Assembly (NCBI RefSeq): GCF_030684315.1
Contig: NC_081358.1
Coordinates: forward strand, 12,012,142 to 12,076,141
Direction: 5' to 3'
From: Stegostoma tigrinum
Lineage: Eukaryota
DNA: 64,000 bases
The notes below the pieces were generated by a model. It saw only the letters and a list, made by a program, of their open reading frames with translations. It had not been told where the DNA came from and did not search any database. Shown one piece after another: positions 18,799 to 62,310 of the stretch. A program made the position numbers and the translations under genes. The stretch's first letter is position 1. Every line of letters starts with the position of its first letter.

Positions 18799-19017
18799 AT
18801 CAGAGATAATGGGAACTGCAGATGCTGGAGAATCTGAGATAACAAAGTGTGGAGCTGGATGAACACAGCAGGCCAAGCAGCATCTCAGGAGCACAAAAGC
18901 TGACATTTTGGGCCTAGATTTTTCTGATGAAGGGTCTAGGCCCGAAACGTCAGCTTTTGTGCTCCTAAGATGGTGCTTGGCCTGCTGTGTTCATCCAGCT
19001 CCACACTTTGTTATCTT
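18799..19017. mobile_element. Palindromic PLE-terminus element; intact plus-strand hammerhead core at 18924-18951
   Basis: Inverted arms; perfect 17 bp TSD aaacaaaaaaaccttgt at 18782-18798 and 19018-19034. Confidence 0.92.
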
Positions 19018-19945
19018 AAACAAAAAAACCTTGTTCAAGATTAAAACATATTAGAACAAACAGCAGCTAATTATAAAGTTTTTCAAATGTGAGTTATTGA
19101 AATTATGTAATTCAACAACAGGCAGTTATTGAATATTAGCTTTAGCTCTGAGCCACAGTCAGATTGCACTTTCTTCAAATTCTATGAGACATTTATGATG
19201 ATATGCTGATGTATCCTCTGTATTTTGTTGAAAAAGCTTAGTCTATATTTAGAAGAATTGTGATAGTTGTAAAGAGATTGATCCAATTTAGCATAAGTAG
19301 CAACAAATACAGTGGAACTCATCATTGCCCTTTACAGACCTTTCCCTCAAGAAACAAATTAACTTGTCTAATTTTAATGTTATAAGTTAACTGAATGTCA
19401 AAAAAGCAGACTGAGTTTCACATCATTATTTTTCAACTGATTTTTAAAAAAATATATTCAAAAGGAAACCTCAGTCATGATATGCAGACTTGTCAGAACT
19501 GTGTCAACAAGGCAGTGTGCATGTGTCTTGGACACATAATTCTTTAATGTTGCCTGTGGTGCAATATTCCAGACCTTATTGTGGGAACATGAACTGCCTT
19601 CCATTCTAAAAAAAAACTTCTTGGTCATTTTGGCTGAGTGCTCACTGCTTTAATCACTGACATTCACTCAGGTCCTCATAAAAAGCAAAATTCCATGATG
19701 CGGGATTGAATTGGCACTTGAACCATTCGATATGAAGAACTGAAGAACGGAGGTGGGGGGGGAGTCAATCACTAGAAGAGCCAACATTTCACAATGACAG
19801 TTCACGTACAGAACATGAACAAATCATTGACTATGTCATTCACTTCATTTCCCCCTTAAAAACTATAGCTGCAAATCGAAGAAATGTGTGATTTGTAACT
19901 TCTTACACTGTACTGTCAGCAATTCCACATGGTCACAGCCCTTAC

Positions 19946-20083
19946 CAGACTTTGGATTGGACAGCAGAGGAGGGCTGCTGCTGGGGGCGGGGCTACTGCT
20001 ATAATAGCCGCTACTGGCACAGCTGCTGCTCATGCTACACCGTCGAACCGCAGAACCAATCTTGATTTCTTTTGTCGGGCTCA
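19946..20083 (-). CDS. DEPTOR: DEPTOR coding exon 6 (Ser-rich linker with SSGYYS phosphodegron-like motif)
   Basis: (V)SPTKEIKIGSAVRRCSMSSSCASSGYYSSSPAPSSSPPLLSNPKS; CAG acceptor, GTAAG donor; 138 nt, phase 1 to 1. Confidence 0.96.
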
Positions 20084-21173
20084 CTGTAAGAGAGCATATG
20101 TCATGTTCAACAATAGAGGTTTCAGTAGAGCTTCACCAAGTTGCCAAGTTTTAAAAAAAAACACATCGCTGGCTACTCTATCAATTCTGTAGGGGATTCT
20201 CTTTTGTTTTTACGTCATAAAAATCAGATAAGTTTCAGGGAACTATTTAGCGTGTTCTCAAACAAAAAAAAAAATCACAAGTTCAAATTTTAGTCCACTC
20301 CAGGTTAGAGGGTCCCAATCTAATTCAACTGTAAGGAGCTGAATTAGTGTCACAGCATGGGCCTGTGGAAATAGTCAGGGTTCACACACTGAAAAAATTG
20401 CATCTCGAGATATAGATGTCATCCTACAGTCTGGAACGTATTTCCCTCTCCAGCTGTTCCCAAGAATGTGGGAACAGGGGTCGGTCATGTCGCCCCTTTA
20501 GGCTGGTTCTCCTTGCCAGATCGATAAGATCACTGCGGATCTGTAACTTAGCTCCTTTGCACCATACTGTTTAGAAATCAAGTTCAGATATTAAAATCAA
20601 TTACTGATGAAGCACCATCTGCAATTTGGTGAAGCTGGCCCCAACCATTTATTACACCATGCTTGGAGAAGTACTTCGTAATTTGTGCAACTTAAGAGTC
20701 TGGTTCTAAATTTCAAGATAATGCCCCTAGTTCGAGACTCAACCAGCCAGCACAAATGGTTTCTTCTATCGATTTCATTCCATTTCCCTTCATATCTTGA
20801 AAACTTTGATCAGCCTTTAATGGTGACCACCTTGATGTGATATCTCAATAATGTTACCATGTCATAACCTTCAAGTTGAATTTGCACCTGTCAAGTTTGC
20901 AGATGAAACCAAAATTGGTGGTGTAATGGACAGTGAAGAGGGTTATCTCAGAGCCTAATGGGACCTTGATCAGATGGGTCTGTCCGCCAAGGAGTGGCAG
21001 ACGGAATTTAATTTAGATAAATGTGAGCTGTTGCATTTTGGTAAGACAAATGAGGGCAGGACATGTAAAATTATTAGTAGAGCCCTGGGGAGTGTTGCCG
21101 AACAAAGAGACCTTGGGGTGAATGTTCACAGTTCCTTCAAGATGGGGTCACCGATAGACAGAGTAGTGAAGGT

Positions 21174-21228
21174 AATAAAATGTGAGGCTGGATGAACACA
21201 GCAGGCCAAGCAGCATCTCAGGACCATA
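21174..21228 (-). mobile_element. 55 bp PLE-terminus remnant inserted in a CR1
   Basis: aataaaatgtgaggctggatgaacacagcaggccaagcagcatctcagga flanked by TSD agtagtgaaggt (21162-21173, 21229-21240). Confidence 0.85.
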
Positions 21229-21306
21229 AGTAGTGAAGGTGGTGACTAGCATTGGTCAGTGTTTTGAGTATAAGAGTTAGAATGTTATGTTGTGGCTGTA
21301 CTTATA

Positions 21307-22762
21307 CAGAACAGAGAACAAAGAAAATTACAGCACAGGAACAGGCCCTTCAGCCCTCCAAGCCTGCGCCGATCGAGATCCTCTGCCTAACCTGTCATCT
21401 ATTTTCTAACGGTCTGTGTCCATTTGCTCCCTGCCCATCCATGTACCTGCCCAAATACATCTTAAAAGACGCTAACGTGTCTGCATCTACCACCTCCGCT
21501 GGCAAAGTGTTCCAGGCACCCACCACCCTCTGCGTAAAGAACTTTCCACGCATATCTCCCATAAACTTTCCTCCTCTCACGTGAACTCATGACCCCTAGT
21601 AGTTGAGTCCCCCACTCTGGGAAAAAGCTTCTTGCTATCCACCCTGTCTATATCCTTCATGATTTTGTAGACCTCAATCAGGTCCCCCCTCAATCTCCGT
21701 CTTTCTAATGAAAATAATCCTAATCTACTCAACCTCTGTTCATAGCTAGCACCCTCCATACCAGGTAACATCCTGGTGAACCTCCTCTGCACCCTCTCCA
21801 AAGCATCCACATCCTTTTGGTAATGTGGCAACCAGAATTGTACACAGTATTCCAAATGTGGCCGAACCAAAGTCTTATACAACTGTAGCCTCACCTGCCA
21901 ACTCTTGTACTCAATAATCTGTCTGATGAAGGAAAGCATGCCATATGCCTTCTTGACCACCCTATTGAACTGCGTTGTCACCTACACGGAACAATGGACC
22001 TGAACACCCAGATCTCTCTGTTCATCAATTTTCCCTAGGACTTTTCCATTTACTGCATAGTTTGCCCTTGAATTTGATCTTCCAAAATGCATCACCTCAC
22101 CTTTGCCCGGATTGAACTCCATCTGCAATTTATCTGCCCAACTCTCCAGTCTATCTATATTCTGCTGTAATCTCTGACAGTCCCCTTCACTATCACCTAT
22201 TCCACCAATCTTAGTGTCATCTGCAAACTTGCTGATCAGACCACCTACACCTTCCTCCAGATCATTTACATATATCACAAACAACAGTGGTCCCAGCACA
22301 GATCCCTGTGGAACACCACTGGTCACAGGTCTCCAACTTGAGAAACTCCCTTCTACTACTACCCTCTGTCTCCTGTTGCCCAGCCAGTTTTTTATCCATC
22401 TAGCTAGCACACCCTGGACCCCATGTGACTTCACTTTCTCCATCAGCCTGCCATGGGGAACCTTATCAAACGCCTTACTGAAGTCCACGTATATGACATC
22501 TACAGCCTTTCCCTCATCAATCAACTTTGTCACGTCCTCAAAGAATTCTATTAAGTTGGTAAGACATGACCTTCCCTGCACAAAACCATGCTGTCTATCA
22601 CTGATAAGCCCATTTTCTTCCAAATGGGAATAGATCCTATCCCTCAGTATCTTCTTCCCTACCACTGACGTCAGGCTCACCGGTCGATAATTACCTGGAT
22701 TATCCTTGCTGCCCTTCTTAAAAAAGGGGACAACATTAGCAAGTCTCTGGAACCTCACCCAT
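21307..22762 (-). mobile_element. Young CR1 LINE, 5'-truncated (RT domain to 3' UTR)
   Basis: ORFs 21982-22758 and 21577-21981: NYRPVSLTSVVG, QHGFVQGRSCLTNL, DFSKAFDKVPH, GVPQGSVLGPLLF, KFADDTK, RPHLEYCVQFW; (TTCTTTG)-type tail. Confidence 0.96.
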
Positions 22763-23439
22763 GTCTAGAATACTTCATTTAATTCTGATCTCCCTGCAAT
22801 TGGAGAGATGCAGTCAAACTTGAAAGAATGCAGAAAAGATTTACAAGAATGATGCCAAGGTTAAAGGGTTTGAGTTACAGGAAAAGGCTGAATAGCTGGG
22901 ACCAGTTTCCCTGGAACGGAGACTGAGTGGTGACCTTATAGAGGTTTATAAAATCATGAAGTACACTATTAGGGTGAATAGCCAAGGTCTTTTTCCTTGG
23001 GTAGGGGAGTCCAAAACGAGACGGCATAGGATAAAGAAGAGAGGGGAAAGAGAGGGATCTCATGGTCAACTTTTTCACACAGATGGTGATGTGTGTTAGG
23101 AATGAGTAGAAATGGTGGAGGTGGTACAATTACAACATTTAAAAGGTATCTGGACGGGTATATGAAGAGGAAGGATTTACAGGGATATGCGCCAAATGCT
23201 GGCAAATGCGACTCGATTAATTTAGGATATCTGGTCAACATGGGCAAGTTGGACCAAAGGGTCTGTTTCTGGGCTGTACAACTCTAATTTGATTTTTATA
23301 CCCTGGCTGTATAAGTATACATATTTGGGTTATGTACCCGAATATATCCTTAATCTCTCTAGTTTTATTCACATTGCATCTTTAAAGTTTTCGTGTAATG
23401 TCTAAAACACAATTTATGATTGCTCGTCCTTTGATTTCT

Positions 23440-27266: not shown

Positions 27267-27749
27267 AAAGCATACTTTGCAATGGAAACTGTCCAATATC
27301 CAACGCTGAATTAGAAGAAGACATTTCCTCTATTGCCTCCAGGCTCTACCGCAAACGCCATTCTCAAGCCATTGACCCGCACCCGCTCTATCTTACTTTC
27401 CTAAACTTGCTGTCACATTTGTCACAAAAACGGCCACGAAATGGCCACACATCTGTTTTGTCATCGCTTCAATCAATTACGAAGGAATCTTCTTTTTCAA
27501 TTCCGCTACCTCACCTAAATTATTTTCTCTCTCCTCTAACAGCATTCAACCAGGCTGGAGTCAACTTGACACACATATCCTTGTCTGACAACTGCCTAAA
27601 ATCACATTTTTGCACATCCACACCCCAGCCCCACCCAGTCCGAATTAAAATTCATCAAAAATCCTGCGATGAAAACAATATCACAATGGCAGTTATAAGT
27701 TTTAAATTAAGCTGCTTTAAAGAATATAAACTGGGCTTCTGTCTGCAGT

Positions 27750-29050
27750 AAAGCTGGATAAACACAGCAGGCCAAGCAGGATTAGAGGAACAGGAAGGCT
27801 GACATTTTGAGCCTCGACCCTTCTTCAGAAATGGCGGAGGGGAAGGAGGTTCTGAAATAAATAGGGAGAGAGGGGGAGGCGGATAGAAGATGGATAGAGG
27901 AGAAGACAGACAGGTCAAAGAGGCGGGGATGGAGCCAGTAACGGTGAGTCGAGGTGGGGAGTGGGGAGGTAGGGAGGGGATAGGTCAGTCCAGGGAGGAC
28001 AGACAGGTCAAGGGGGCAGGATGAGGCTAGTAGGTAGGAGATGGGGGTGGGGCTTGATGTAGGAGGAGGGGAGAGGTGGGAGGAAGGACAGGTTAGGGAG
28101 GCAGGGACGAGTTGGGCTAGTTTTGGGATGCGAAGGTGGGGGAGGTTTTCAAGCTTGTGAAGTCCACATTGATACCATTGAGCTGCAGGGTTCTCAAGCA
28201 GAATATGAGTTGCTGTTCCCGCAACCTTCAGGTGGCATCATTATGGCACTGCAGGAGGCCCATGATGGACATGTCGTCTGAGGAATGGGAGGGGGAGTTG
28301 AAATGGTTCTCGACCCGGCAGTGCAGTTGTTTAGTGCAAACCAAGCCTAGGTGTTCTGCAAAACTGTCCCCAAACCTCCAAGATAATAAAATGTGAGGCT
28401 GGATGAACACAGCAGGCCAAGCAGCATCTCAGAAGCACAAAAGCTGACGTTTCGGGCCTAGACCCTTCATCAGAGAGCATCTCTGATGAAGGGTCTAGGC
28501 CCGAAACGTCAGCTTTTGTGCTCCTGAGATGCTGCTTGGCCTGCTGTGTTCATCCAGCCTCACATTTTATTATCTTGGAATTCTCCAGCATCTGCAGTTC
28601 CCATTATCTCTGTCCCCAAACCTCCACTTGGTTTCCCTGATGTAGAGAAGGCCACAACGTGTACAGCAGCTGCATTATACCACATTAGCAGATGTGCAGG
28701 TGAACATCTGCTTGATGTGTGAAGTCTTCTTGGAGCCTGGGATGGGGGTGAGGGAGGAGGTGTGGGGGCAGGTGTAGCACTTCCTGCGGTTGCAGCAGAA
28801 AGTGCTGGGTGTGGTGGGGCTAGAGGGGACTGTGGAGGGACCAGAGAGAGTGGTCCCTCCAGAAAGCAGATAAGGGTGGGGAGGGATAAACGTCTTTGGT
28901 GGTGGTGTCGGATTGTAGGTGGCAGAAGTGTCGGAGGATGATGCGTTGGGTCAGGAGGTTGGTGGGTTGGTGAGGACAAGGGGGATTCTGTTTTGGTTGT
29001 TTTTGCAGGGACGGGCTGTGAAGGGTGAGTTGCGGGAAATGTGGGAAATA
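27750..29050 (-). mobile_element. Penelope-like element, left (inverted) arm of a composite; interrupted by a younger palindromic insertion
   Basis: Minus strand carries decayed GIY-YIG (FGDSFAEHL...HFNSPSHSSDDMSIMGLLQC) and the same 3' region as 29520-30600 in inverted orientation. Confidence 0.88.
28381..28609. mobile_element. Young, near-perfect palindromic PLE-terminus element with intact hammerhead cores on both strands (28446-28473 minus, 28483-28510 plus)
   Basis: Arms of about 96 bp with one visible mismatch around a 3 nt loop (gca); tail on the right; perfect 17 bp TSD ctgtccccaaacctcca at 28364-28380 and 28610-28626. Confidence 0.95.
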
Positions 29051-30624
29051 GCTTGGACCTGCCTCTTTGTACGTTACATGGAACAATCCCTCTTCCATAG
29101 CTATACTGGCCCTAAACCCCACCATTTCCTCCGTTACATTTGATGACTGTATCGGTGCCACCTTGTGCTCCCACGAGGAGCTCGAACAGTTCATACACTT
29201 CACCAACACCTTCCACCCCAACCTGGAGTTTACCTGGGCCATCTCTAATACCTCTCTCTCCTTCCTGGATCTCTCTATTTCCATCTCTGGCCACCACCTG
29301 GAAACCGATATCCATTTCAAGCCCACCGACTCCCCACAGCTACCGAGAATACACCTCCTCTCACCCACCTTCCTGCAAAAATTCCATCCCCTATTCCCAA
29401 TTCCTTCACCTCCACCGCATCTGCTCCCAGGATGAGGCATTCCACTCCTATACATCTCAGATGTCCTCGTTTTTCAAGGACCGCAACTTACGCATCTCAT
29501 TGGTCGAGAATGCCCTCAACCATGTCTCCCGCATTTTCCGCAATTCATCCCTCACACCCTCTCCCCGCAATAACAGCCAAAACACAAACCCCCTTGTCCT
29601 CACGTACCACCCCACCAACCTCCAGATCCAACGCATCATCCTCCAGCATTTCCGCCATCTGTAATCCGATCCCACCACCAAAGACATTTTTCCCTCCCCA
29701 CCCTTAACTGCTTTCTGGAGAGACCACGCTCTCTGTGACTCCCTTGTCCGCTCCACACTCCCCTCCAGCCCCACCACACCCAGCACTTTCTGCTACAACC
29801 GCAGGAAGTGCTACACCTACCCCCACACCTCCTCCCTCACCCACATCCCAGACCCCAAGAAGACTTTCCACATCAAGCAGATGTTTACCTGCACATCTGC
29901 CAATGTGGTATACTGCATCAGCTGTACCCGTTGTGGCTTCCTCTACATCGGGGAAACCAAGTGGAGGCTTGGGGACCATTTTGCAGAACACCTACACTTG
30001 GTTTCCACTAAACAACTGCACCTCCCAGTCGCGAACCATTTCAACTCCCCCTTCCATTCCTCAGACGACATGTCCATCCTCGGCCTCCTGCAGTGCCACA
30101 ATGATGCCACCCGAAGGCTACAGGAACAGCAACTCATATTCCGCTTGGGAACCCTGCAGCCCAATGGTATCAGTGTGGACTTCACAAGCATCAAAATCTA
30201 TTCCCCTCACCCTCCGCATCCCAAAACCAGCCCAGCTCATCCCCAACTCCCTAACCTGTCCTTCTTCCCATTTACCCTCTCCTCCCACCTCAAGCCCCAC
30301 CCCCATCTCCTACCTCCTTGCCTCATCCCACCCCCTTGACCTGTCCATCCTCTCGGACTGACCTATCCCCTCCCCACCTACACTCACCTTTACTGGCTCC
30401 ATCCCCGCCTCTTTGACCTGTCTGTTTCCTCTTCCCCTATCTTCTCCTCCACCCATCTTCTATCCGCCTCCCCCTCTCTCCCTATTTATTTCAGAACCCC
30501 CTTCCCCACCCATATTTCTGATGAAGGATCTCGGCCCAAAACGTCAGCTTTTGCGCTCCTAAGATGCTGCTTGGCCTGCTGTGTTCATCCAGCTCTACAC
30601 CTTGTTATCTGCAGTTCATACTAC
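29051..30624 (+). mobile_element. Penelope-like element, right arm: RT C-terminus/thumb, GIY-YIG and 3' terminus (frameshifted)
   Basis: DDCIG...EELEQFIHFTNTFHPNLEFTW..SLSFLDL...HFKPTDS; YTSSHPPSCKNSIPYSQFLHLHRICS; ANVVYCISCTRCGFLYIGETKWRLGDHFAEH; terminal CTGATGA at 30518 with GAAA mutated. Confidence 0.92.
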
Positions 30625-32528: not shown

Positions 32529-32749
32529 CAGGAGATAGTACGAACTGCAGATGCTAGAGAATCTGAGATAACAAGGTGTAGAGCTGGATCAACACAGCAG
32601 GCCAAGCAGCATCTTAGGAGCAGGAAAGCTGACATTTCGGGCCTAGACTCTTTTTCCGATGAAGGGTCTAGGGCTGAAACGTCAGCATTCCTGCTCCTAA
32701 GATGCTGCTTGGCCTGCTGTGTTCATCCAGCCCTACATCTTGTTATCTC
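32529..32749. mobile_element. Palindromic PLE-terminus element
   Basis: Inverted arms plus left tail; TSD ataagaga(a/t)tgtgta at 32514-32528 and 32750-32764. Confidence 0.9.
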
Positions 32750-35198: not shown

Positions 35199-36439
35199 AA
35201 TTCTTTGAGGACGTGACAAAGTTGATTGAGGGAAAGGCTGTAGATGTCATATACATGGACTTCAGTAAGGCGTTTGATAAGGCTCCCCATGGCAGGCTGA
35301 TGGAGAAAGTGAAGTCACATGGGGTCCAGGGTGTGCTAGCTAGATGGATAAAAAACTGCCTGGGCAACAGGAGACAGAGGGTAGTAGTAGAAGGGAGTTT
35401 CTCAAGTTGGAGACCTGTGACCAGTGGTGTTCCACAGGGATCTGTGCTGGGACCACTGTTGTTTGTGATATATGTAAATGATCTGGAGGAAGGTGTAGGT
35501 GGTCTGATCAGCAAGTTTGCAGATGACACTAAGATTGGTGGAATAGGTGATAGTGAAGGGGACTGTCAGAGATTACAGCAGAATATAGATAGACTGGAGA
35601 GTTGGGCAGATAAATGGCAGATGGAGTTCAATCTGGGCAAAGGTGAGGTGATGCATTTTGGAAGATCAAATTCAAGGGCAAACTATACAGTAAATGGAAA
35701 AGTCCTAGGGAAAATTGATGAACAGAGAGATCTGGGTGTTCAGGTCCATTGTTCCCTGTAGGTGGCAACGCAGGTCAATAGGGTGGTCAAGAAGGCATAC
35801 GGCATGCTTTCCTTCATTGGGCAGGGTATTGAGTACAAGAGTTGGCAGGTGAGGCTACAGTTGTATAAGACTTTGGTTCGGCCACATTTGGAATACTGTG
35901 TACAGTTCTGGTTGCCACATTACCAAAAGGATGTGGATGCTTTGGAGAGGGTGCAGAGGAGGTTCACCAGGATGTTGCCTGGTATGGAGAGTGCTAGCTA
36001 TGAACAGAGGTTGAGTAGATTAGGATTATTTTCATTAGAAAGACGGAGATTGAGGGGGAACCTGATTGAGGTCTACAAAATCATGAAGGGTATAGACAGG
36101 GTGGATAGCAAGAAGCTTTTTCCCCCCCAGAGTAGAGGATTCAATTACTAGGGGTCATGAGTTCAAAGTGAGAGGAGGAAAGTTTATGGGAGATATGCGT
36201 GGAAAGTTCTTTACACAGAGGGTGGTGGGTGCCTGGAGCGCATTGCCCGCGGAGGTAGACACAGACATGTTAGTGTCTTTTAAGATGTATCTGGACAGGT
36301 ACATGGATGGGCGGGGAGCAACGGGATACAGACTGTTAGAAAACAGATGACAGGTTAGACAGAGGATCTCGATTGGCGCAGGCTTGGAGGGCCGAAGGGC
36401 CTGTTCCTGTGCTGTAATTTTCTTTGTTCTTTGTTCTTT
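35199..36439 (+). mobile_element. Young CR1 LINE, 5'-truncated; near-identical to 21307-22548 in opposite orientation
   Basis: ORFs 35213-35761 and 35762-36151 with DFSKAFDK, GVPQGSVLGPLLF, KFADDTK; tail ttctttgttctttgttcttt. Confidence 0.96.
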
Positions 36440-37301
36440 AAGACCTTGGCAATGTAACTCAAGACATGCTGAGACACTGCTACTGAATCACCATCTGCAA
36501 AACTTGCTGACACATGCCTCTGCAAGTGACTCGGAGAAAACATTTCAGACCTGCAAAGCTGAGCAAAGGATTATATATTATGTTGGAAACTTTGGGAACA
36601 ATTTTATACAAGTTATGCTTGCGTTGTTCTAAGCTGCATTAAAATCCTGTTCAGTGACAAAATGCAAAAAGATTATTCAAAATAAAAATGTCTTCCCAGC
36701 ATAACTTTGGCTATTTGATTAAAAGATGCTCTGAATGTCATGCACACTCCTACAGTGTTTTTGTTTTTCTGTTTGCTTATTATGCTCAAATTCATTTGGT
36801 TCTGTATATACTGGCAACTAGTGTCTCTTGCTTTTCCACCAATGTATTACAGAAGGCCAGGAGGAAATGTCCTCTTCACTAAATGGCCACAAGTTCTGGT
36901 AGTGTGGAACAGAAATTGGAAGGGGGGATCCTGGATGAATTTCTATTTGGAAGCCTTGGGACTCTTTGGCAAATTGCAATTGTATCATAGGTTGAGATCA
37001 AATCAAGCTGGGCTTCCTCATCACTTAAACAGAGAGCTTCATAAAACTATTATGCACCAACAAACAGCTGAAGACCAGGCCAGGGTTGGGGCAGTGCACA
37101 GATAAGTCACCATTTGCTTGAACTCTTTCTACCTGTTTTTATAATCGACCTGTTCAGTGATGTTATGACATGACTCGGGAATAGGTGGGACTTGAATTCA
37201 GGCCTGGCAGTCCAGGGGCAGGGACTCCAGCACTGTGCCACACTGGGGAACAAGTGCTTCACATTGCATGTCAAATGGCAATTAGTTAATCAATTTCTCA
37301 C

Positions 37302-37727: not shown

Positions 37728-37951
37728 ACAGAGAGAGTAGAAACTGCTGATGCTGGAGAATCTGAGATAGCACGGTGTGAAGCTGCATGAACACAGCAGG
37801 CCAAGCAGCATCAGAGGAGCAGGAAAACTTGATGTTTCGGGTCAGGACCCTTCTTCTGAAAGGAAGGGTCCCGACCCGTAACGTCTAGCTTTCCTGTTCC
37901 TCTGATGCTGCTTGGCCCACTCTGTTCATCCAGCTTCATACCATGTTATTT
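37728..37951. mobile_element. Palindromic PLE-terminus element (variant stem II GGGTCCTGACCC)
   Basis: Inverted arms plus left tail; TSD gaca(c/t)ttataatttgtt at 37711-37727 and 37952-37968. Confidence 0.9.
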
Positions 37952-39653
37952 GACATTTATAATTTGTTGACTTAGAAGGCCTGGATACAACAACAAGATA
38001 TACAATGAAATACTTTTGAGTAAAAGTACAGACAACATTTTAAAGCTTCAATTTATTGATTTCATGCACAGGCACCCAAGATTTTATTTTAAAAAAAAAC
38101 AACGCAGGCAACTTCAGACATTGCATGCAGGAATTTGCAAAGAGAGACCCCTGTTAGTTTTCCTCAGCTTTGCTTGTACTGTCAAAATTAATTTTGACAA
38201 GGGACAAATAAGGGAGGAAAAGGAGGAGAAAGAGAAAGGAAAATTTATAAAATATAGGACATCAGCATTGAAATAAACTCCTACGCCAAAAAGACTAAAA
38301 GAATATTTTTCATGTTCATGACAAATGTAAATCAAAATGAAAAATACTTCCACTCTCCCACCAAAAGCAGTCTGTGCTTTTTTTCCATTTACAGAAAATG
38401 AAAATGTTTGTTAAATGAAACTTATTGTGTCCTCACTAACAAAGTCAGAAAGAGGAGTATATTTTCTAAAAATGTTGAATCATTCAGAACAGAAAAGCCA
38501 AACCAAACTCACTTGTTAGGCTAATACCATTTGTCAGTAGCTTCTAGGCTTTTGGAACTTATGAATAAAGTTTTAGTTACAACTCACTGCTGGACTATTT
38601 TAGGATTTAATTCAGGTTCAGCCCAGATCTTGCTGAAGAATAGGATGATCTCCATTGCTGAAAAATACAAACAATTTGCAAATCAAGACACATGGATATC
38701 CTGACACAGCTGACTCTGTGAATTTCCCAGGAAGTTGAAACTTCTGACAGCCAATTACCCAGCATTTGGAAGCCTACAGAAAAGTTCCCTCCTTGACCAG
38801 TTACCTTCCAGCCCTCTAGCCATCCAATGATACCTGACACACCCACATCCCCAGCTCTCTCCCACTTCTACCTGAAGAAAATTAATGCCATACCCCCCTA
38901 TGACCTGACCCCAACTCTATCGCCCCACCTTGGACCTGCCCCAGCAGCTCCACCACACTCTCCCATGTTCCAAACTAAATGCCACTCTCTTCCCCAACCT
39001 ACCCATTCTTCATTTACTTACTTCCTGCCTTACCCATCCTACTGGCCTCCCTGCCTTACCCATATACCTGGTCCACTGATCTGCCACTCTACCGCCTTAC
39101 CTCACCCACCTTGCCTCATCCAACTTCTGGAAATCATTAACGACATTGAACACAGATTTTTAATTAGTAACAGGTTAAAGGGTTGGGAAGAGCAAAGTGG
39201 AGTTGGGAGGCTGAGATGAGATCAGCCATGATGCGGAGCAGACTCAAGGAGCTAAAGTATTGACTCCTGATCCCAGGACTTGTGACTGACAATTCTCGGG
39301 GGTCACTGAGGGGCAGAAATCCCATTTGAATGGAGTAAGCTCATAAACATATGAATTTGGAGCAGAAATCAGCCACTCAGTCCCCAATCATGACTGCTGT
39401 GTCTGTGTTTCAAACTTCATGCAGGAGAAGCCAAATATTACTTCCCAAAGTTGTTCAACCCTCTAAAAAAGTTTTCTCTTCGTCTGTCTTGAAAGGATGA
39501 CACCCAATTTTCAAACAGGGACCCCTATTTCTGGATTCACCCCCAAGAGAAAATATCATTCTCCACCCCACCCCAACCTTGTCAAGACCATTTAGGATCT
39601 TATACACATCTCACTGTTCTATAGCAAAACAGAAGCATACTCAGTCTGTCCAT

Positions 39654-39866
39654 GAGGGATAATGGGAACTGCAGATGCTGGAGAATCCGAGATAACAAAG
39701 TGTCAAGCTGGATGAACACAGCAGGCCAAGCAGCATCTCAGGAGCACAAAAGCTTATGTTTGGGGCCTAGACCCTTCATCAGAGGGTCTAGGCCCGAAAG
39801 GTCAGCTTTTGTGCTCCTGAGATGCTGCTTGGCTTGCTGTGTTCATCCAGCTCCACACTTTGTTAT
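39654..39866. mobile_element. Palindromic PLE-terminus element
   Basis: Inverted arms plus left tail; TSD ctcagtctgtccat at 39640-39653 and 39867-39880. Confidence 0.9.
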
Positions 39867-41059
39867 CTCAGTCTGTCCATCCTCTGTTATTGCTGCAGCG
39901 TGTGCTTCTTTCTGGTGGGTAGCTGCTGGCTGGCTTTCCTAAAATCAAACTCTTTGAAGCTTCTACCAGCCTATCAGAACAAAATAGGATTTCACTGTGG
40001 TTTTGTGCTTGTTTCCAAACTTTATAGCCGTATAAAAGGATTGCAACATTATCTTCAGCTTGGGTTTTTTTTGTCCAATAGATTGAGTTTGAATGCAGGG
40101 TTTCCTTAAATTGCTCAATGCTTTTCCAGTTATACTGAAATTACTTTCATTGCCACTGTATGGCTGCTGAGAACTGCATGTTAGAAATATAGGTGAACAG
40201 CAACAGGGGATATATGGGAGAATGAGGTGACACAGGCGAAGAGAAAGAGATTGGTGAAGTTTCTGATGAGTTTAAACAATGCTGTACTGGAGTATTTCCA
40301 AGTCCGGATTGACTTTTTTTTTAAAGACCACCATCAATTCACTCATGTCACTAATTACTGACTCTAGATTGAAAATCAAGCATTTAATTTGCTCTGCATG
40401 TGGAATATACTTGATGGTTACAGAACATCACAACAATACAGACACTTTCACAAACAGGTCATCAACTCAGAATGGTAATTCTGAATCTCTCTTTGCAGAT
40501 GTTGCCTGACCGCCTGAACACTTCCAGCTTTGTAATCTGCTAGAAAAGTCATTCCGAGTTGAATGTTATGTTTTTTGGTAAGTCTGAGCTGTGTTTAGTT
40601 TTCAAAGGGTTTTTCACCATGAGGCCTAGCAGATTTCCTCGCCCTATCTGATCAAACTTGTGCATTAAAATTGCCTGTTCCCACCCGACAGTGTCTCTCA
40701 CATCCAATTTCTGCCCCATGTTACCACAACTCAACTACTCTGCCAATATCTAGCCAAAGACTGAAATCTTCTGTGCCATCTTGAAAATACCACAGCCCAC
40801 TTGGCCAACTCTGAGGCTGCCCTTCTCATTTGTAGACATGTCTGCAAGATGTCGGAAAAGGAGAAGGTGGCAATGCGATCTACCAACACTAAGCTGGAGA
40901 TCCTGGTGGGAACTGAGAGAGGAGGCCAGGCCACCAGGCCCTGCAAACCTGCTCTGAGCTTGCCACCTGGGTCAGTGCCATCTCCAGGATGAACAGAACA
41001 ACAGACAGCATGTTCCACGGAAGGTCAATGATCCTCTGCGCTCAGCCAGGGTTAGTGTC

Positions 41060-41385: not shown

Positions 41386-41399
41386 CTGAGGTCTGTTTC

Positions 41400-46229: not shown

Positions 46230-46404
46230 AGATAACAAGGTGCAGAGCTGGATGAACACAGCAGGCCAAGCAGCATCAGAGGAGCAGGAAGGCTGACATT
46301 TCGGGCCTAGACCCTTCTTCTGAGCTTTCCTGCTCCTCTGATGCTGCTTGGCCAGCTCCGCACCTTGTTATCTCAGATTCTCCAGCATCTGCAGTTCCTA
46401 CTAT
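46230..46404. mobile_element. Palindromic PLE-terminus element 100 nt upstream of the exon 2 acceptor
   Basis: Inverted arms (right arm internally deleted) plus right tail; TSD cagtgattcatcct at 46216-46229 and 46405-46418. Confidence 0.9.
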
Positions 46405-53049: not shown

Positions 53050-54425
53050 TCCCATTCTTGCAATGTTGGACCCAGCACATATGTTAAAGATCAGGCAGAA
53101 GCATTCACAACCATCTTCAGCCTGAGGTGCTGACTGATTTTATTGTTGTCGCATGCAGCGAGATACAGTGAAAAGCATTGTTTCGCATGCTACACAGGCA
53201 GATCATATCATATAAAGAAGGAGAGTGCAAAATAAGTGTTCAATGGCAGAGCACGTGCAGAGAGAGATCAGAATTAACAATTGATAGATCTGTTCAAAAG
53301 TCTAACAGCAGAGAAGAACGTTGTTCCTGAATCTGTTCATACGTGTGCTCAAATTTTCTTCTGGCCGACAGAAGTGGGTGGAAGTGCGTATAACTGGAAT
53401 GGGAGGGGTCTTGATTATAAGTGGATCATCCATACTAACTTCCATCTGAGGTCAGTATCATCACAATGAGACAAATGAAGGCTTATGGGTCCATGACATT
53501 TCAGCTGTAGTGCAAAAGAGTTTTGCTCTAGAACTAGCCTCACCTCTAGCCAAGCTGTTCCAGTTGAACTCCTGACCTCTGACCAATTCGAAAATTGCCT
53601 TGTTTTGCCCACTCCAATATGAACAGGATAAAGCCGATTTGGCTTAGTATTGCTTCATTAGTTGACTTATCAATCATTAAAGTGACAGAAGGTGTCAGCC
53701 CACAGTGCTGTCATTAATATACTGAGCAGTGATGCTCAATCTAGGTTTCACCAGGGTCATTTCACTCCAGATCCAATTGGTATCTTGGTGTAAACATGAA
53801 CAAAATGCTAAATTCCAGAGGTAGTGGGAACTGCCGGTGCTGGAGAATCTGAGACAACGTGGAATAGAGCTGGATGAACACAGCAAGCCACGCAGCATCA
53901 CAGGAGCAGGAAAGCTGATGTTTCGGTGATTTCTGAAGAAGGGTCTAGGTCCGAAATGTCAGCCTTCCTGCTCCTCTGATGCTGCTTGGCCTGCTGTGTT
54001 CATCCAGCTCTACATCACTAAATTCCAGAGGCTAGATGAGAGTGACTTACCAGCACATCACAGCAACATTCTGACTATGAGAGGCCAAGGAGTGTGGCAA
54101 AAACTAGAGTCACTGAGAATCAGGCTGGAAAACCTTCACTGAAGTCATAACCTGCACAATTACTGGAGGCCAAACTTCTCAGCCCCAAGAGATCTCTACA
54201 GGAACTTTCCTAGGACAAAGACATAGACCATTTCCAACTGCTTCATCAAAGACATCCTGCCTTCTAATGTTCAGAAATTGGAATGCTGGCTATTGATTCC
54301 AGTTCACCATTTCATTTCAAACAAGAATTGGACAACAGTCAACCCAGCACTGATAAGTGGCAAGTTACATTTATACCATACAACTGCAATTGTCTCAAAC
54401 AGAACAGGCTAATCACTTCCCTTGA
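53050..54425 (+). mobile_element. Old LINE fragment (second copy at about 9265-9650), host of the 53822 palindrome
   Basis: Shares gaggctcca..atc, accatcttcagcc, gctccagaact..cc..tagccaagctgttcca with 9330-9640; RT-like decay downstream; clade not determined. Confidence 0.55.
53822..54017. mobile_element. Palindromic PLE-terminus element; plus-strand core CTGAAGA..GAAA at 53933-53960
   Basis: Inverted arms plus left tail; TSD ctaaattccagagg at 53808-53821 and 54018-54031. Confidence 0.9.
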
Positions 54426-54915: not shown

Positions 54916-55404
54916 TTCTTGTTCTTAATTAGCAAAATGTGATAGTAGAATTAGCAACAGCGCCATCAGATAACGTCGGCACACCACTGAGCTCTTCACC
55001 AGTGTTAATTCTGACCCTTTAAAATTGTTACCTGCTGTAGCCTTTTCTCTGAAGCTAAGTTTCACAAATTCACAGCACTGTCAACCATCGTACATCATGT
55101 GAGAAAACTTGTTTCAGTCAGGTGCAATTCAATCAATAAGAAGTTGAAGTCATTGCAGATGATGTCAATATCAAAAACAGAAATCCCAAGAGTAATTTCA
55201 TTAAGAGGCCTGCTTCAAGCACAAAGTAACACCATACAAAACAGCCAATATTGCTTATCACTCCATCAAATCAAACAGTCTGGGTGAGAACTACAGCAAC
55301 TGGAGTTTGTATAATGTTCACAGGTAAGGGCATTAACAGGTGTGGTTGGTTGAAGATCTAGGGACTGGAACTGTTCAGGAGGGAAAGGTTACATTAAACA
55401 TTTT

Positions 55405-56000
55405 AGGAACATAGAAAGAGGAAGAGCTATTCTCTCACATCTGCTCCACCATTTAATGAGATCACTGCTGACCTGTCATTTCAATTATAAAAATAAGTTC
55501 GATAAACAATCATCATCTACACAAGACATTGCCAAGCTTCCACCACTCCTTGCATAAAGTGCTGTTTCACAATTTTCATCAAAAAAATGTTTGGTTTTAA
55601 TTGTTTTTAGGCAATGACTGCTCACTTTGTGGAAATTGCTTATGTATATCTCCCACATATTGATTATCTTCAACACTGGTTCAATAGACCACTAACCTCC
55701 CAAAAGAACCAGTAGTTTGTGCATTCTTTTCTCCTAGCTTTCCAATATATCTACGTGTCACTTCCTCAAAAAGGTGATATGATTTGGTGCCCAAACTGTT
55801 CACAGTACTGCAGGTCTGACAAAACCAGGGCTTCGGATAGCTAAAGCGTGACTCACACCCCTTGTATTCTAGCCTTCTAAATACAAAGTCCAGCTTCCTA
55901 CTGGGCCTTTTGATTATTTTCTGCACCTGCTCATGACATTTTCATGATCCATGTGGATGGTCTTCAACAATCTTTGGCCTCACTGTCCTGTTTTTCACCA
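55405..56000 (-). mobile_element. Old CR1 3' fragment
   Basis: QKIIKRPSRKLDFVFRRLEYKG on minus; gaacatagaaa..gctccaccatttaatgagatca typical of a CR1 3' end. Confidence 0.6.
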
Positions 56001-59000
56001 TTTAGCAAGCTCCTGATTGATCCTTGACAAATACCAGGGGGGATGATCTCTTACACGGAAATGCATTTACCACAATTTTGTCCATCCCCTTAAATGTATT
56101 CATTTTGGCCATTTTTTGCATTAATTTACATTATTTGCCTTCTAAAAGATATCTTTGTTGCTTTTTAGTTAAGGGCCAAAATAGCAATATTTCCTTTTCT
56201 GGACATCACTATACAGAATGCATTTTGCTACAGTGAATTCAAAATGACGCTGGTCTAGCAGCGCTGGTGGAGACAAAAAACAAAGAGAATTCTTTGAGTC
56301 CATTATAAGTCTTCTTCAGAACTTCACATTCCATCACTTAAATCTTTAATAAGCAGTGAATAGTTGAAGCCCATTATGTTAGCCATTTGTCCTTGCTGGA
56401 CACCTCTTGTCACTTTCTGCTGAAACCTACCCATTATCATCACCGTGTCTATAGCTCAGCTGACTTCTCAGTCAGGTCAATAACTTGAGTTCAATATCAT
56501 GGACTTAGCTAACAGTCCCTCAGGAGGGAATTTCAGTGGTGACCTGGATTTACACTGAGACACATGCGCACACACAAGCTTGTGGTCGAGAGCGTACAGG
56601 GTCCTGGGTGGGGATGTGCAAGATCGCTGGTGCATGTGTAAATGGACTGGAGAGGAACATGATCAAGATGTAACAGGGTTGAGGGTAGAGAATATGGTGA
56701 GACTTTTCATCTGGATCGTGTTCTCACTGTCTCATTCCACATCTTGCAACCCCAGGACACAGTTCACCCTCTCCACAGTTCTCCATGTCATTCCCCTTCC
56801 ATTCGCCTTCCAATTCTTTCATCTTCAGGTTTCCCCTTCTTACCCTATTACTAAGCTTCTCCCTCTCCTCTCCCAACCACATGTCTCCTTCTTTTTCTCC
56901 CAACTACACCGCTGTCTCCATCTCCCTTCCAATTCCTCTCTCCACCTGAGATTGTCCTTCTTCCCTCCAACCTCCAGCTCTTCCCTCTCTGTCCCCTACC
57001 ATTTCCACCTCCGCTCTCTTCACCACCTCTGACCTGCTGACCCTCTCGAAGCAAGCAGCAACATCTTAGAAACACAGCTAGCAGAAGGGGTGGGGATTTT
57101 GGGGCAGTGGGGGACTTCTGTTACAGATTAGTAGATCAGTAAAAGGGAGTGAAGGAGAGAGAGAGAGATGAAATTTTGTGATGGAAAAGCCTGGAGAGAA
57201 AAGATACAGAAGGGACAATTGTGCAATTGTGGGTGACAATGAAACAAACAAAAAAATATATATAATTATCTGGTTATTCATAGCTGCTCCGGCCATGAGA
57301 TCTGCTGTTATGGTAGATCGCACTTGTCTGTCTTGCACCTTCCACACACATCCATTGGGATTTGCCTGGAACCACTGTGTCATCCATCATCCTACTACGC
57401 TTAGGTCAACCCTCATTCTGCTGACATTCACCTTTGTCTTCTCAAAGAGATTGTTGTAGCTTTACAGCTCTGAACAATAGCCAAAATAGCACAATTCTCT
57501 TCTCTAGATGTCACTTTATAGAAGGTATTTTGCTACGGTGCACCTCTATCCGTCTTTTTTTTAAACTTATGTCTTAGCATCCAACGGCATCACTTCTCTT
57601 TGTTGATCTTTATCTTTTGCACAAGTGTCTAGCGCATACAGGAAAGTGGATACAATTTAGCATCTTATCTTTCTTTCCTTATGACAAGCTTCAGTTTACT
57701 TGCTGCTAATATATCATTCATCTTCACAAAATTACTTCTGGCCACATCAATCCTTCCCTCACTTTAGCATCACATTTATTTCCTTACGTTATCGTTTGCC
57801 TTAAACAGACAAATTTATCTCATGATTCCAGGGTCACACTATCTATTTCAATGTTCACTCGTTTCTAATAACGTATTTCTTCTAATTATCATTGACCCTT
57901 GTCTTTTTGGGGTTCATACGTAATCCATATTCTAAACTTCTGATTCTGCAAGTCATGTTGCGCCTTAAGTGTACCATAAGTTTGTTATTTTCTTGCCTCC
58001 AACTTTCACCCCTGGAAGTATTTGTTCTTGGTACAGATTGAATAATTTTGGCAAAAAGATACAGCCTTGCCATATTCTTCCTTTCCCATTCAACTGTCCC
58101 TTTTCTCACCTAATGCTCGCTATTTAACTGCAACATTTAGGCTCTACGTAAATCTTACATCTTTCCTGTCAATGTCGCATATCAGTGACACTTCTATTCT
58201 CTTTTGGTGACAAACAGAACTGACTCCGTTCTCACTGCACAGTATGTGATTCATATATAATTAGTTTTGTTTAATTTTAGGGATTTATTGAAGAATGTCA
58301 CCCAGTCCGTATTCCACTAATTTCTGCTTCAAAATGAACTATTGATTTTTTTCTCATGATTTTCAAGAGCCTTTTGAAAAGACAATTCATTAAGCACAGA
58401 GCTTGAAAATGATTGCATACCTTTGGCTTAGGTTTCTTAGGCATCAATAAGAATGATGGTCTCGAATGTCATTTAGAATGTATCTTTTGATATCTAAGTG
58501 ATCACAAATCTCTGTTATCACTTCTAATTCTGTTTATCCAAAGGCTTTTAAATGTTCTCTTCTTACTTCATCTAAGCCTGAATATAGTTTCCTGTATAAT
58601 ATATTCTTTACCTTCAATATCATAATGTTTGGTCCATCATTTGCCTCTTTATCTTGAGGGATCCCGGCAACAGTAGAACCTGCTATCAGCACCTGCTCTC
58701 TGAAAGAAATGGGTGTGGTGGTTATGATCTATAGTTATTGAACTCAGCATCGAGTTCATAAAATTGTAAAGTGAAAAACTACCAATGTCAGTGCTCATAG
58801 CAGAGTCAAAGTGCCTCCGAACAATCATTGCTAGAGTTCACACATTTATTGTGTTTATGTTAGGGATGCAGTAGCAGTATAAATTCTAAAACAAAAGCAC
58901 ACAACATACAGAGTTAAAGTTCAATCAATTCATATGGCACTTTAGAATAAGATTCTAACCCTTGATAAGAGGAAGTCATTTATGTTTCAAAATTTCTTGC

Positions 59001-59668
59001 CTCCCGTCGTTTTACTTCTTCCTCTTAAGGGGGCTTGTGATTCAAGATGGCTCAACATAATTACGCATCAACATTATTGTACACAAATTCCTCATGCTCT
59101 TGATTGTGCAGTGACCATATGGAAGGTGATTAGTCTTTCAATGAATATTTGTGGTGTGTGTTTTACAGCTGACTCCATTAAACTGTATCATCCATTAACT
59201 ATCCCCACTAAAGGAAGCATAGGGATGGCTTATGTAGTACAGTATATATTCACAACACATTACCATACTAGCTCCTCTTCGCCATCCCATCCGACTCCAT
59301 TCATAAGATTTTTTTTTCCCCTCACTGCAACCACAATAATCTAAACTGGCATTTCAGCACAGCACTGGGGCAACTGAAACAGACATTGACACAGGCACAA
59401 ATCTGTTATTGGCTGGATACACAAACCAAAAAGAAGATTTCGCCTAACAGCAACGTGTCAATGCCAAGATTTATTCTTTAACTGAAAGCAGTTGGCTGGG
59501 CAATAAGCTCATTGCTGATTTTGGACATTGTGTTGAATACTTCGGCTGTCCTACTTATTGCATGAAAACAATAGCTAGGGTCCAAGAAGTCTTTCACTTA
59601 AAAATAAATCCTTTATAACGTCTTAAGATTGGGATGGCACCAAATATATGCAAATTCTTTGCACTGTA

Positions 59669-60020
59669 GGTGAGACATGGTGTCTGTGGTTAGCACTGCT
59701 GATTTACAGCACTAGGGACCTGGATTCAATTCCCTCCTTGCTTACTGTCTGTGTGGAGTTTGCATGTTCTCTCCATGTCTGTGCAGGTTTCCTCCGGGTG
59801 CTCTGCTTTCTTCCCATAGTCCAAAGATGTATAGGTTACGTGGACTGGCCACGCTAAATTGCTTGTAGTGTTCAAGGATGTGTAGATTAGGTGGATTAGC
59901 CACAGGAAATGTGGTGTTACAGGATATAGTGGAGTCTAGATCTATGTGGGATGCTCTTTGGAGGTTCTGTGTAGACTTGATGGGCTGAATGGCCTCCTTC
60001 TGTACAGTAGGGGTTCTATG
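59669..60020 (+). mobile_element. Older HE1/V-SINE copy
   Basis: gtggttagcactgctg, ggattcaattccc, ctgtgtggagtttgcatgttctc...gtttcctccgggtgctct...gtccaaagatgt. Confidence 0.85.
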
Positions 60021-60339
60021 TATTATGACCTTTTTCTTTTAGAGATGGAGTAACACAAGAAGTGCATCATGGGCACTAGACAGAACAAGGTTTGTAGTTC
60101 CTTCATGACTGGGATTCAAACTGGGATTTGCCAGTTCTGCCATATTGGGTACAGCCAATAGTGAGGAAGGCTATGGAAGCAGAGATGGACAGATTCTTGG
60201 TAAGCACACGGTGATAGCTTATCGGATGTAGGCAGGAACGTGAAGTTGGGGTTACAGTCACATCAGCCATGATCTTGTTAAATGGTGGAACAGGCTCGAA
60301 GTGTCAAAGGTCTACACTTGATCCTAATTCGTATGACAA

Positions 60340-61065
60340 TTACGAGACAGTTATAAACTTGTAAAATGGGCAAATGAAGTGTGAGACTTTACATGTTAAG
60401 AGAAACAAAGTGATCACATATTACTTGGAAAATAAGAACATGGATAGACATGGAGAGCGGATGGATCAGGAAAACAAATTTTCAAATCACTGTAAGCAAA
60501 GTTTAATCGCACATTCATGAAAGGAGAAACCAAAGGCTAAAGTTTAGCTCTAAAGGGGCACAACTGTAGAATAGGAAAAGCATGCTAAACATGTATCTAA
60601 CCATGGATGGTATACCAAATACTGTTTTTGTCGCTGTGATTTAAAAACAATTTGGAGGCACTGGAGATGTTATAAAAATAGGTTTACAAACATTATATCA
60701 GAACTATGAGATTACACCTATTAGGAGAGGATGAATAACTCGCTCTCTTTTCTCTTGTGGGATAAAAGGCAAGGGAGTCTTCAAAATTATGAATGGTTTT
60801 GATAGAAGTAGATGTAGACATTCTGAGAAATTAAATAGGAAACTGAGAAAACATGATTTTTCAATTTAGTATTGTAAGAATGTGGCACTTACCACCACAG
60901 GGAATAACTTAGGTGAATTGCATTTAAGCAACAGCTGGACGAGCAGGTGAGGGATAGTGAAATACAGGTAGATGACAAAGTTTGGGAAGTGACTCGAGTG
61001 GCAGATAAATGCTAGGAAGGATTGGTTCAGTTGACTGGCCCGCATCTGTGATGTAAATTCTATAG
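60340..61065 (+). mobile_element. Very old CR1-like fragment
   Basis: gaggcactggag...tttacaaa...tcttcaaaattatgaatggttttgatag resemble CR1 ORF2 C-terminus; heavily decayed. Confidence 0.55.
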
Positions 61066-61199
61066 AACTCTACATAACCTTCACTACTGTAATAATACAA
61101 TTCAAACTTCTCAAGTCACGCCGTAAAACTGAAGTCCCTCACATTCCAGTGTCACTCTACAAAATCCATTCTGCAATCGCTCTCTAGCACCTTGACATC

Positions 61200-61810
61200 C
61201 TTCCTAAAGTCAAACATCATTCTCCATCTGAGCCCAAAGCAAAGGTTTAACATGAGCTTCCTTTTCTTGCCTCTATTTATAAAACCAAGGATGCTGAATG
61301 CCTTTTTAAACAGCCTTCGCGACTTGCTCTGCCAACTTCAATTTTTTTTTCCACGCACTCCAAAGTTGGGTTTGTTCAATGCACCAGTTTTTAAAATTAC
61401 TACTTTCAGTTCATAAAGTCTCTCCTCATTCTTCCTACCAACAGGATCACTGCACATTTAATTGTGATAAATTTCATCTCTCATACATCTGCCTATCTCA
61501 GTTGATGTCCATATCCTCGTAAAGGCTGCTATCTTCTCATTAATTCCCACATTTAAAATTGTGTCATCTGCAAAGTTTGATACTATATCCTGTGATACCC
61601 AAGTCCAGGTCATTCATGTACAAAGGGAGCATAAATACTGATATACATGTATTCCCCTCAGTCTGAAAACAACAATTTATAACCTTTCTGCTCAGTTTCA
61701 TTTCTCTGCAACATCTTTAATCCCAAATCTGCTTATAAGTCTGTTATGTGACTTCTTGTGAAACGCCTTTGAAAGCCCACATTCACAATGTCAACCACAA
61801 TACCCTCATT
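61200..61810 (-). mobile_element. Very old CR1-like RT fragment
   Basis: gtgtcatctgcaaagtttg (antisense of FADDT) at about 61561; aacgcctttgaaagcc (antisense of FxKAF) at about 61762. Confidence 0.6.
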
Positions 61811-62190
61811 AAATTGACTGACTGTTTTTGATAAATAATAAAAGCCTATTCAGACGAATAGAAAGCTATTGCACAGAAAGCGGTCATTTGGCTCATTGGG
61901 ACCACGCTGGCTCTTTGCAGGAGGAATTCACTCAGTACCACCACCCTGCAGCACTCTTGGGAATTCCCCAAATCTTGTTTGAAAACCATAATTGAATCTG
62001 CCCCCGATCACTCAATCATTGCATTCCAGATCTTAAGCAATCACTGCACAAAAGAAACCACATTTCTTATCTCATCATTGCTTCTCTTGCCAATCACCTC
62101 AAATATGTGCCCTCGTGAAAATTTTTCTCCCTATCTTCCCTGCCCAGTTTCCCTATGATTACAAATATATCTATCAAATCTCCCTTTCCA

Positions 62191-62310
62191 AAGAAGGGTC
62201 TAGGCCCGAAACGTTCCTGCTCCTCTGATGCTGCTTGGCCTGCTGTGTTCATCCAGCTCTACACCTTGTTATCTCAGATTCTCCAGCATCTGCAGTTCCT
62301 ACTACCTCTG
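62191..62310 (+). mobile_element. Single-arm PLE terminus with tail, 5'-truncated inside the hammerhead core
   Basis: aagaagggtctaggcccgaaacgt...gattctccagcatctgcagttcctactacctctg; TSD aaatctcc(c)tttcca at 62176-62190 and 62311-62324. Confidence 0.88.

Follow-up and report, generated by a model that had tools for sequence, protein, structure and literature searches.

Head-to-head insertions of a Penelope-like element in Stegostoma tigrinum and their breakpoints around the hammerhead motif

Insertions of endonuclease-containing (EN+) Penelope-like elements (PLEs) carry an inverted, 5'-truncated copy and a one-sided tail of 30-40 bp (Craig et al. 2021, PMC8557442; Arkhipova et al. 2013, PMC3846280), and the accessible text of both studies ascribes the palindromes to self-priming on an antisense template and the tail to endonuclease resolution, and contains no breakpoint statistics. 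In the green anole element Poseidon_Ac (PAc; Frangieh et al. 2024, PMC11167929), two adjacent internal start sites of the reverse transcriptase (RT) bracket the tail, with the hammerhead upstream of them; the enzyme, a predicted dimer, cuts and extends both target strands. The available portion of that study does not connect the two start sites to head-to-head pairs. For the minimal hammerheads of metazoan PLEs, circular RNA was proposed to serve as template in making more-than-unit copies (Cervera and De la Pena 2014, PMC4209133, from the part accessible). On the origin of the inverted and partial-tandem insertions of PLEs and the role of the hammerhead, views differ, the positions being antisense self-priming, circular templates, and a cleavage that was dispensable in the sole biochemical study. 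Here, a 64,000-nucleotide (nt) stretch of the Stegostoma tigrinum genome (assembly GCF_030684315.1, contig NC_081358.1, positions 12,012,142-12,076,141; hereafter the window) was analysed together with an unselected genome sample. As judged from its sequence by the motif definitions of PMC8557442, the palindromes of the window are insertions of an EN+ PLE of Neptune/Nematis type. We demonstrate their anatomy, arm polarity, target duplications, shared source, coupled arm lengths, two breakpoint edges and read-through, and we lean slightly towards a reading in which each palindrome would be one insertion, with two nicked target strands each priming a DNA copy of the same RNA and the arms stopping at the RNA start.

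As far as EN+ PLEs are described in the accessible text of PMC8557442 and PMC3846280, the shark element resembles them in its head-to-head inverted copy, single tailed arm, target duplications, microhomology junctions and partial tandems, and differs in that most of its units are only the size of the pseudo-long terminal repeat (pLTR). The EN+ layout of a pLTR, a tail at one end and an inverted 5'-truncated copy was recovered, with 5' pLTRs in 9 of 16 long copies. Compared with what is available on PAc (PMC11167929), the shark element likewise has two 3' ends that bracket the tail and a hammerhead upstream of them; unlike PAc, which belongs to another clade and has no linker zinc finger, it uses the two ends one per arm in 69/73 typed pairs and has a genomic edge at the predicted ribozyme cut. 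The head-to-head layout is already published, and element and layout are ordinary for PLEs; the value of the present analysis lies in the breakpoint statistics. A literature search covering little subscription content found no paper on PLE twin priming or on breakpoint edges at the hammerhead, nor one with counts of polarity or coupling, the edge at +29 or the read-through contrast reported below.

The genome (3.2 Gb, 835 contigs) was sampled through 146 grid-spaced 10-kb stretches (L031-L176; 1.46 Mb), in which arms were mapped against 12 real copies; window copy 5749-6580 served as a reference copy. Arms within 30-40 nt of a stretch end were removed, reducing the set from 335 to 325 and then 323, and loci selected by query (L001-L030 and L177-L242) were excluded from the histograms. 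Element positions are numbered from the C of CUGAUGA in the hammerhead as +1, which places the predicted cut between +28 and +29. The sample yielded 80 head-to-head pairs and 163 unpaired arms, from which a genome total of about 1.7e5 pairs is estimated (80 per 1.46 Mb, extrapolated from large contigs). An origin as fold-back artefacts of assembly was ruled out by the 2-20% divergence between arms and by the target duplications.

The 3' ends of the arms were bimodal, lying at about +92 in tail-less (short) and at about +127 in tailed arms. Among the 80 pairs, 69 joined a tailed to a tail-less arm, one had two tailed and three had two tail-less arms, and seven were untyped; the 11 pairs outside the first group were excluded from the tail+short counts. 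Unpaired arms comprised 75 tailed and 74 short ones, and the hidden partner remnants found beside 14 of them were of the opposite type in 12. The tailed arm reached further 5' in 26 of the 69 pairs and the tail-less arm in 25, the two being within 3 nt of each other in 18. In long pairs, the difference in reach ran from -1084 to +974 nt, with the tail-less arm longer by 162-974 nt in several. Since each arm can carry sequence that its partner lacks, folding back of a single cDNA (complementary DNA) cannot produce such pairs, and fold-back as the mechanism implied by the original prediction is disfavoured.

These counts bear on self-priming, in which one strand (cDNA, or antisense RNA in the accessible text of PMC3846280) folds back as its own template and the stagger of the endonuclease cuts confines the tail to one side. 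It would directly account for the coupled arm lengths and shared variants described below, it suits the 18 pairs with nearly coincident starts, and the junctions of loci L018, L022 and L024 look as if a 3' end had been primed on an arm-internal GCATCT. However, a cDNA primed at +127 cannot yield a partner reaching further 5', as the tail-less arm does in 25/69 pairs, and one primed at +92 cannot yield a tail; unpaired tail-less arms are as frequent as tailed ones, and working on sense RNA, the anole enzyme, in the available text, cuts and extends the two strands alike (PMC11167929). The pair counts apply to the cDNA version, the antisense-template version being compatible with them. Self-priming is, in our judgement, unlikely.

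The two arms of a copy share a source, as emerged from the comparison of arm variants that the original prediction had proposed: 57 doubletons fell within 17 long pairs (seven random, ten selected) against 58 across 544 cross pairs. In the arm tree, 13 of the 17 were sister arms. Both arms belonged to the same subfamily in 27/28 typed pairs, and loci L019, L084 and L105 each carry an identical private internal deletion in both arms.

Arm starts (n = 323) included 100 at -5 to +4, 10 at -15 to -6, 11 at +19 to +28, 33 at +29 to +38, 32 beyond +38 and 96 upstream of -15 (median start -441); arms with <24 nt in +29 to +92 escape detection, which cuts off the downstream side of this distribution. 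The excess at -5 to +4 over -15 to -6 was pronounced (100 vs 10; binomial p 8e-20), and 14 of the 80 pairs joined >50 nt upstream, up to 2 kb. The genome-wide breakpoint histogram called for in the original prediction is thus far from uniform, and its breakpoints are not restricted to the ribozyme. The main edge lies 3-4 nt upstream of the hammerhead core, and ribozyme cleavage was rejected as its cause, the cut lying 32 nt downstream; the idea that the ribozyme defines the template end is retained solely for a minor class at +29.

In the young subfamily, 7443 exact genome matches start at -3, 4344 at -2 and 3368 at -4. Among the first 100 matches listed for each edge, all on contig C1, the base upstream of the start was G in 71 and A in 4 at -3, G in 33 and A in 39 at -2, and G in 34 and A in 27 at -4; matches with a non-A base preceding a G before -3 numbered 2070. 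A cap copied as an extra base would yield G before -3, for which these tallies are suggestive. In each of the three subfamilies, the edge adjoins a C-rich tract. Splicing to an acceptor at -3, after the model of Drosophila virilis, where an intron ends at helix I in the accessible description, was rejected: no AG acceptor precedes -3 in the template, which has CCCC or CCCA there, and no upstream exon is common to the copies.

At +29, the first base past the predicted cut and yet also the foot of a predicted hairpin, 2402 exact matches start, against 127 for the matched +27 control, and about one fifth of the +29 matches are neither partner-derived nor short deletions. Perfect palindromes centred on AGCT at +29 account for ~1490 matches, versus 95 for ACGT, which is just as self-complementary and lies 5 nt upstream. 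Arms from +29 onward pair with one another (odds ratio 9.4, p 0.001). Separately, hammerhead-bearing PLE families of greater divergence (70-75% to the panel) likewise start at -2 to +1 (L045:9060-9275, L110:287-544, L069:9460-9575 and L085:9820-9893), and a sequence edge near the hammerhead start may be common to several PLE families.

The element behind these arms was characterised from long copy L207, which has an 853-residue open frame with an RVT_1 match at 339-481 (E 3e-6, slightly below the curated cut-off). The GIY-YIG match was weak (E 0.051, window copy at 29665-30198); a C-terminal VVY-CxxC-LYIG endonuclease motif is visible in the L207 translation. That translation further contains ADKGG, the DKG motif ahead of the RT core; CIHCTRCGFLYIG, with the CCHH cysteines between GIY and YIG; and CNRRKCYTC (CX4CxxC), a zinc-finger-like CX2-5CxxC linker between RT and EN. 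The DKG, CCHH and linker motifs of PLEs are defined in the accessible text of PMC8557442. A PDB sequence search with the long open reading frame (ORF) returned no relatives at E <= 0.01.

Next to the main edge, the marks of a minimal PLE hammerhead are present, namely the CUGANGA core, an extra base, G10.1-C11.1, GAAA, a palindromic ACGU and GUC. Across 112 arms, chosen by a pattern that itself fixes part of the core, A stood at +8 in 111, the first helix II pair was G-C in 87 and G-T in 20, T27 was kept in 108 and C28 in 103. As with the hammerheads described in the accessible part of PMC4209133, the core is of type I and minimal, with an extra base between 9 and 10.1, palindromic 15.2-16.2 and motifs 100-700 bp apart on opposite strands; compared with them, helix II is 4 bp long and helix I, as in D. 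virilis, just 2 bp. The minimum-energy fold is predicted to be an inactive hairpin in which +1 to +6 pair with +25 to +30.

Arm lengths within a pair are coupled: of the 69 tail+short pairs, 10 were long/long, 58 short/short and one mixed (Fisher 3e-11). In a looser partner search, the partners of long arms were long in 26 and short in 2 cases in the random sample, and long in 42 and short in 4 at EN-selected loci; none of the six short partners started at -5 to +4. Short arms had 137 short and 2 long partners. Among 16 young near-full-length copies, nine keep the 5' pLTR; of these, seven extend beyond -66, one begins at +6, another at +29 and none at -5 to +4, so that 7/7 copies reaching the -3 edge read through it. 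From the coupled arms and the full-length read-through it follows that the -3 edge is a property of a template class. A stochastic RT stall point, the other origin proposed initially, is therefore not supported, and -3 as the start of the RNA behind full-length copies was likewise rejected (0/9 with a 5' pLTR).

The same observations weigh on structure-defined stops, whereby the +1 to +30 RNA/cDNA hairpin would stall the RT at its 3' foot (+29 to +38) or release the cDNA beyond its 5' foot (near -3, before the C-run), with no RNA ends involved. Exactly such a hairpin is the minimum-energy fold, the -3 edge abuts the C-rich tract in three subfamilies, and a stall had been suggested from the window itself. 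Against this, a stop applied at each passage (100/206 arms reaching +4 end at -5 to +4, 49%) predicts frequent long/short pairs and full-length stops, whereas no partner began at -5 to +4 among 74 partnered long-arm entries, some loci being counted from both arms or twice, and the 7/7 read-throughs would have a chance of about 0.01. Such stops would be tenable only with folding decided once per RNA molecule, and we regard them as improbable.

Each palindrome formed independently at insertion, as had been supposed: target duplications of >=10 nt flank 52/69 tail+short pairs, compared with 4/333 shuffled flank pairs, the target breaks being staggered with duplications of 10-19 nt, and the junctions of all 69 pairs are distinct. 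The companion claim that each junction is different holds in the window and in the sampled pairs, and gives way genome-wide, where identical junctions recur. The junction at 28.5k has exact matches at 21 places, six of them on small contigs with common flanks, and the AGCT-centred perfect palindrome at +29 occupies 40 loci among the first 100 listed of the 2402 matches, or ~960 loci by extrapolation. Recurrent junctions thus make up <1% of the extrapolated pairs and are located on self-complementary or microhomology sites. At L018, L022 and L024, an arm from -2 joins its partner at an internal GCATCT near +45, a recurrent microhomology that also raises the A count before -2. Seven loci (L004-L006, L009, L013-L015; contigs C30, C61, C64, C86, C88 and C114) carry one palindrome within shared flanking sequence, an indication of a large tandem or segmental repeat.

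Recurrence of identical junctions could speak for short copies being a self-propagating lineage, either similar to short interspersed elements or derived from a palindromic master and copied as units, and the internally deleted mini-units L019, L084 and L105 did transpose as units. The 69 distinct junctions in 69 sampled pairs, instead of copies with one common junction, argue against it, as do the rarity and placement of the recurrent ones, outer ends that are both fixed at two start sites, which is unexpected for a palindromic master, and the same edge in three subfamilies. Short non-palindromic copies transcribed from -3 are possible, and would still make -3 an RNA end. We consider a master lineage very unlikely.

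The last rival is later trimming, proposed originally as an alternative, in which long palindromes would have been shortened after insertion by hairpin deletion down to the hammerhead. Spacers are longer in older pairs (rho 0.37, p 0.002), implying that junctions change or are selected with age. However, short unpaired arms stop at the same edge (37/81 at -5 to +4 vs 6 at -15 to -6; a clear target duplication was found in only 18 of the 81), junction position and arm divergence are uncorrelated over 66 short pairs (rho -0.14, p 0.27), and young long pairs with kilobase arms persist. Trimming is accordingly disfavoured and appears most improbable.

Two dispersed single insertions, L084:6750-8440 and L105:4980-6182, have target duplications of 12 and 15 nt and a head-to-head partner arm; in each, one arm contains ~2.7-3 copies of a repeat unit (446 or 301 nt, with an internal deletion) that are 99.3-99.7% alike. 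The unit consists of a post-tail piece, the deletion, 3' untranslated region (UTR), hammerhead and tail, and is retrozyme-like, with two arrays per 1.46 Mb. In the accessible text on non-LTR retrozymes (bioRxiv 10.64898/2026.07.22.740005), tandem 300-450-nt hammerhead units likewise derive from PLE ends; instead of forming satellite blocks, the shark arrays lie dispersed, each a single insertion flanked by a target duplication and joined to a partner arm. Both such arrays and the read-through of the 5' pLTR would be expected if a circle, or a tandem transcript, were copied over more than one unit. L019:1152-1885 is a mini-element with a deletion common to both arms, whose tailed arm extends to -2 of an upstream pLTR; this start was not counted in support of the edge because the query used began there. 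In comparisons of L084:7331-7775 with contigs of other organisms (runs X3-X5, of uncertain kind), a few join the post-tail region directly to the 5' edge of the hammerhead, as would result from a template jump at the edge or from a very short tandem unit.

Within the window, self-comparison revealed eight palindromes of ~175-235 nt, one long inverted pair and four single arms, and the short arms start between about -5 and about +34:

2658-2742, minus strand: single tail-less arm, +8 to +92, from mapping against the reference copies.
5749-6580, minus strand: single long tailed arm, -670 to +127, with the end of the GIY-YIG region, C-rich 3' UTR, hammerhead motif and tail.
10599-10820: head-to-head pair, tailed arm (minus) to +11, tail-less arm (plus) from -5; target duplication ~15 nt.
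18803-19016: head-to-head pair, tailed arm reaching +12, tail-less arm beginning at -4; target duplication ~17 nt.
21169-21229, minus strand: single tail-less arm, +34 to +94, within another repeat; absent from the original list.
27748-30615: long head-to-head pair, junction 29046/29058 inside the ORF, at -990 and -1469.
28377-28610: young palindrome inside the long pair, its arms (97.5% alike) starting at -3 and -2; target duplication ~14 nt.
32532-32749: head-to-head pair, tailed arm (minus), tail-less arm (plus) from -5.
37731-37957: older-subfamily pair with overlapping arms that start at about -2 and about -1.
39658-39868: pair with a target duplication, tailed arm reaching 0, tail-less arm beginning at +8.
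46231-46404: pair, tail-less arm reaching 0, tailed arm beginning at the ribozyme's predicted cut (+29).
53818-54012: pair, tailed arm cut within the core, second arm from -3 preceded by G.
62191-62308, plus strand: single tailed arm from about +4; target duplication ~15 nt.

The eight junction strings reported previously were each found once, at 10709, 18913, 28469, 32645, 37850, 39775, 46314 and 53921, and the two arms reported as single, 2658-2742 and 62191-62308, are single, starting at about +8 and about +4; the aligner over-extends the latter into its target duplication. Clustering at the hammerhead is real, and in the genome sample it is far above chance. Its extension to all junctions and truncations fails even within the window because the pair 27748-30615 joins inside the ORF, and it is further contradicted by the single arms from -670 and +34 and by the 14/80 sampled pairs mentioned above. 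Palindrome 28377-28610 has inserted into an older long PLE arm, within its endonuclease region, and is flanked by a clean target duplication. Fragments of a different retroelement, with strong RVT_1 matches, lie at 21305-22764 (minus strand; E 6.5e-32) and 35199-36440 (plus strand; E 1.6e-21).

In LINE-1 twin priming, one RNA is copied into cDNA from each of the two target strands; the stretches copied neighbour each other without overlapping, and the inverted junction carries microhomology. In the PLE pairs, by contrast, the arms start 35 nt from each other and span a common region, whence the palindrome. For the shark element, twin priming is probable on the sequence evidence, and would proceed as follows. 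The target is first broken with a stagger, as the observed 10-19-nt duplications show. The arm ends at +127 and ~+92 would then represent two internal RT start sites like those of the anole Poseidon enzyme (PMC11167929, from its accessible text), one per strand on one RNA or on two RNAs from one locus. Two separate cDNAs of one template would result and be joined head to head via short homology or small insertions. Finally, the form of the template would set the arm class: a primary RNA starting near -3, probably capped and primed in the first pLTR, would give the commonest arms of ~100-130 nt, akin to "strong-stop" products; ribozyme-cut RNA would give arms from +29; and tandem or circularised RNA would give the products that continue through the -3 edge, namely long arms, partial tandems and multi-unit arrays. 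We find it fairly likely that -3 marks an RNA start, and marginally favour in vivo ribozyme cleavage as the source of the +29 edge; circular RNA templates are possible, if on balance doubtful.

Several points weigh against this proposal. As to the ribozyme, helix I comprises 2 bp (U0-A29, and C/U-1 with G30), where 4-5 bp are expected of a minimal PLE hammerhead; an Rfam scan of the window gave no hammerhead family at E <= 1, only chance matches to microRNA hairpins below gathering scores; and in the available text on PAc, cleavage was unnecessary in vitro and no RNA-seq ends fell at the ribozyme cut (PMC11167929). Both edges (-3 and +29) flank one predicted 30-nt hairpin, so structure alone could place them. 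Regarding the cap, 47 of the 71 G entries at -3 have an A before the G and may be derived from the partner arm, and among nine unpaired arms at -3 at least three of the G's are explained by a partner remnant or the target duplication. As for the common source, 4/17 long pairs were not sister arms, the partner was the single nearest arm by raw distance in only 6/17, and gene conversion between arms could give shared variants. Furthermore, 31/59 long and 85/224 short arms lack a detectable partner, one old copy with a 5' pLTR starts at -109, and the requirement for sequence downstream of the tail would be carried over from another PLE clade.

Taken further, the insertions would tentatively be a fossil record of the full PLE RNA cycle, a reading we hold to be rather unlikely as a whole: a capped transcript beginning 3-4 nt ahead of the ribozyme, a linear form cut by the ribozyme and a circle closed by ligation would each have left their trace in the genome, one enzyme dimer would copy its RNA twice, once per start site, and only the circle would give long or more-than-unit copies. 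The proposal makes base-level predictions for the mapping of RNA ends, namely an RNA end with a cap near -3, one produced by cleavage at +29, a circle junction at +28/+29 and one start site per arm. If the RNA-cycle reading is true, it would lend in vivo support to the circular-template proposal of 2014 and link the RT start sites found in vitro to the head-to-head layout of PLEs, and the hammerhead would act as a switch between abortive 130-nt insertions and real transposition.

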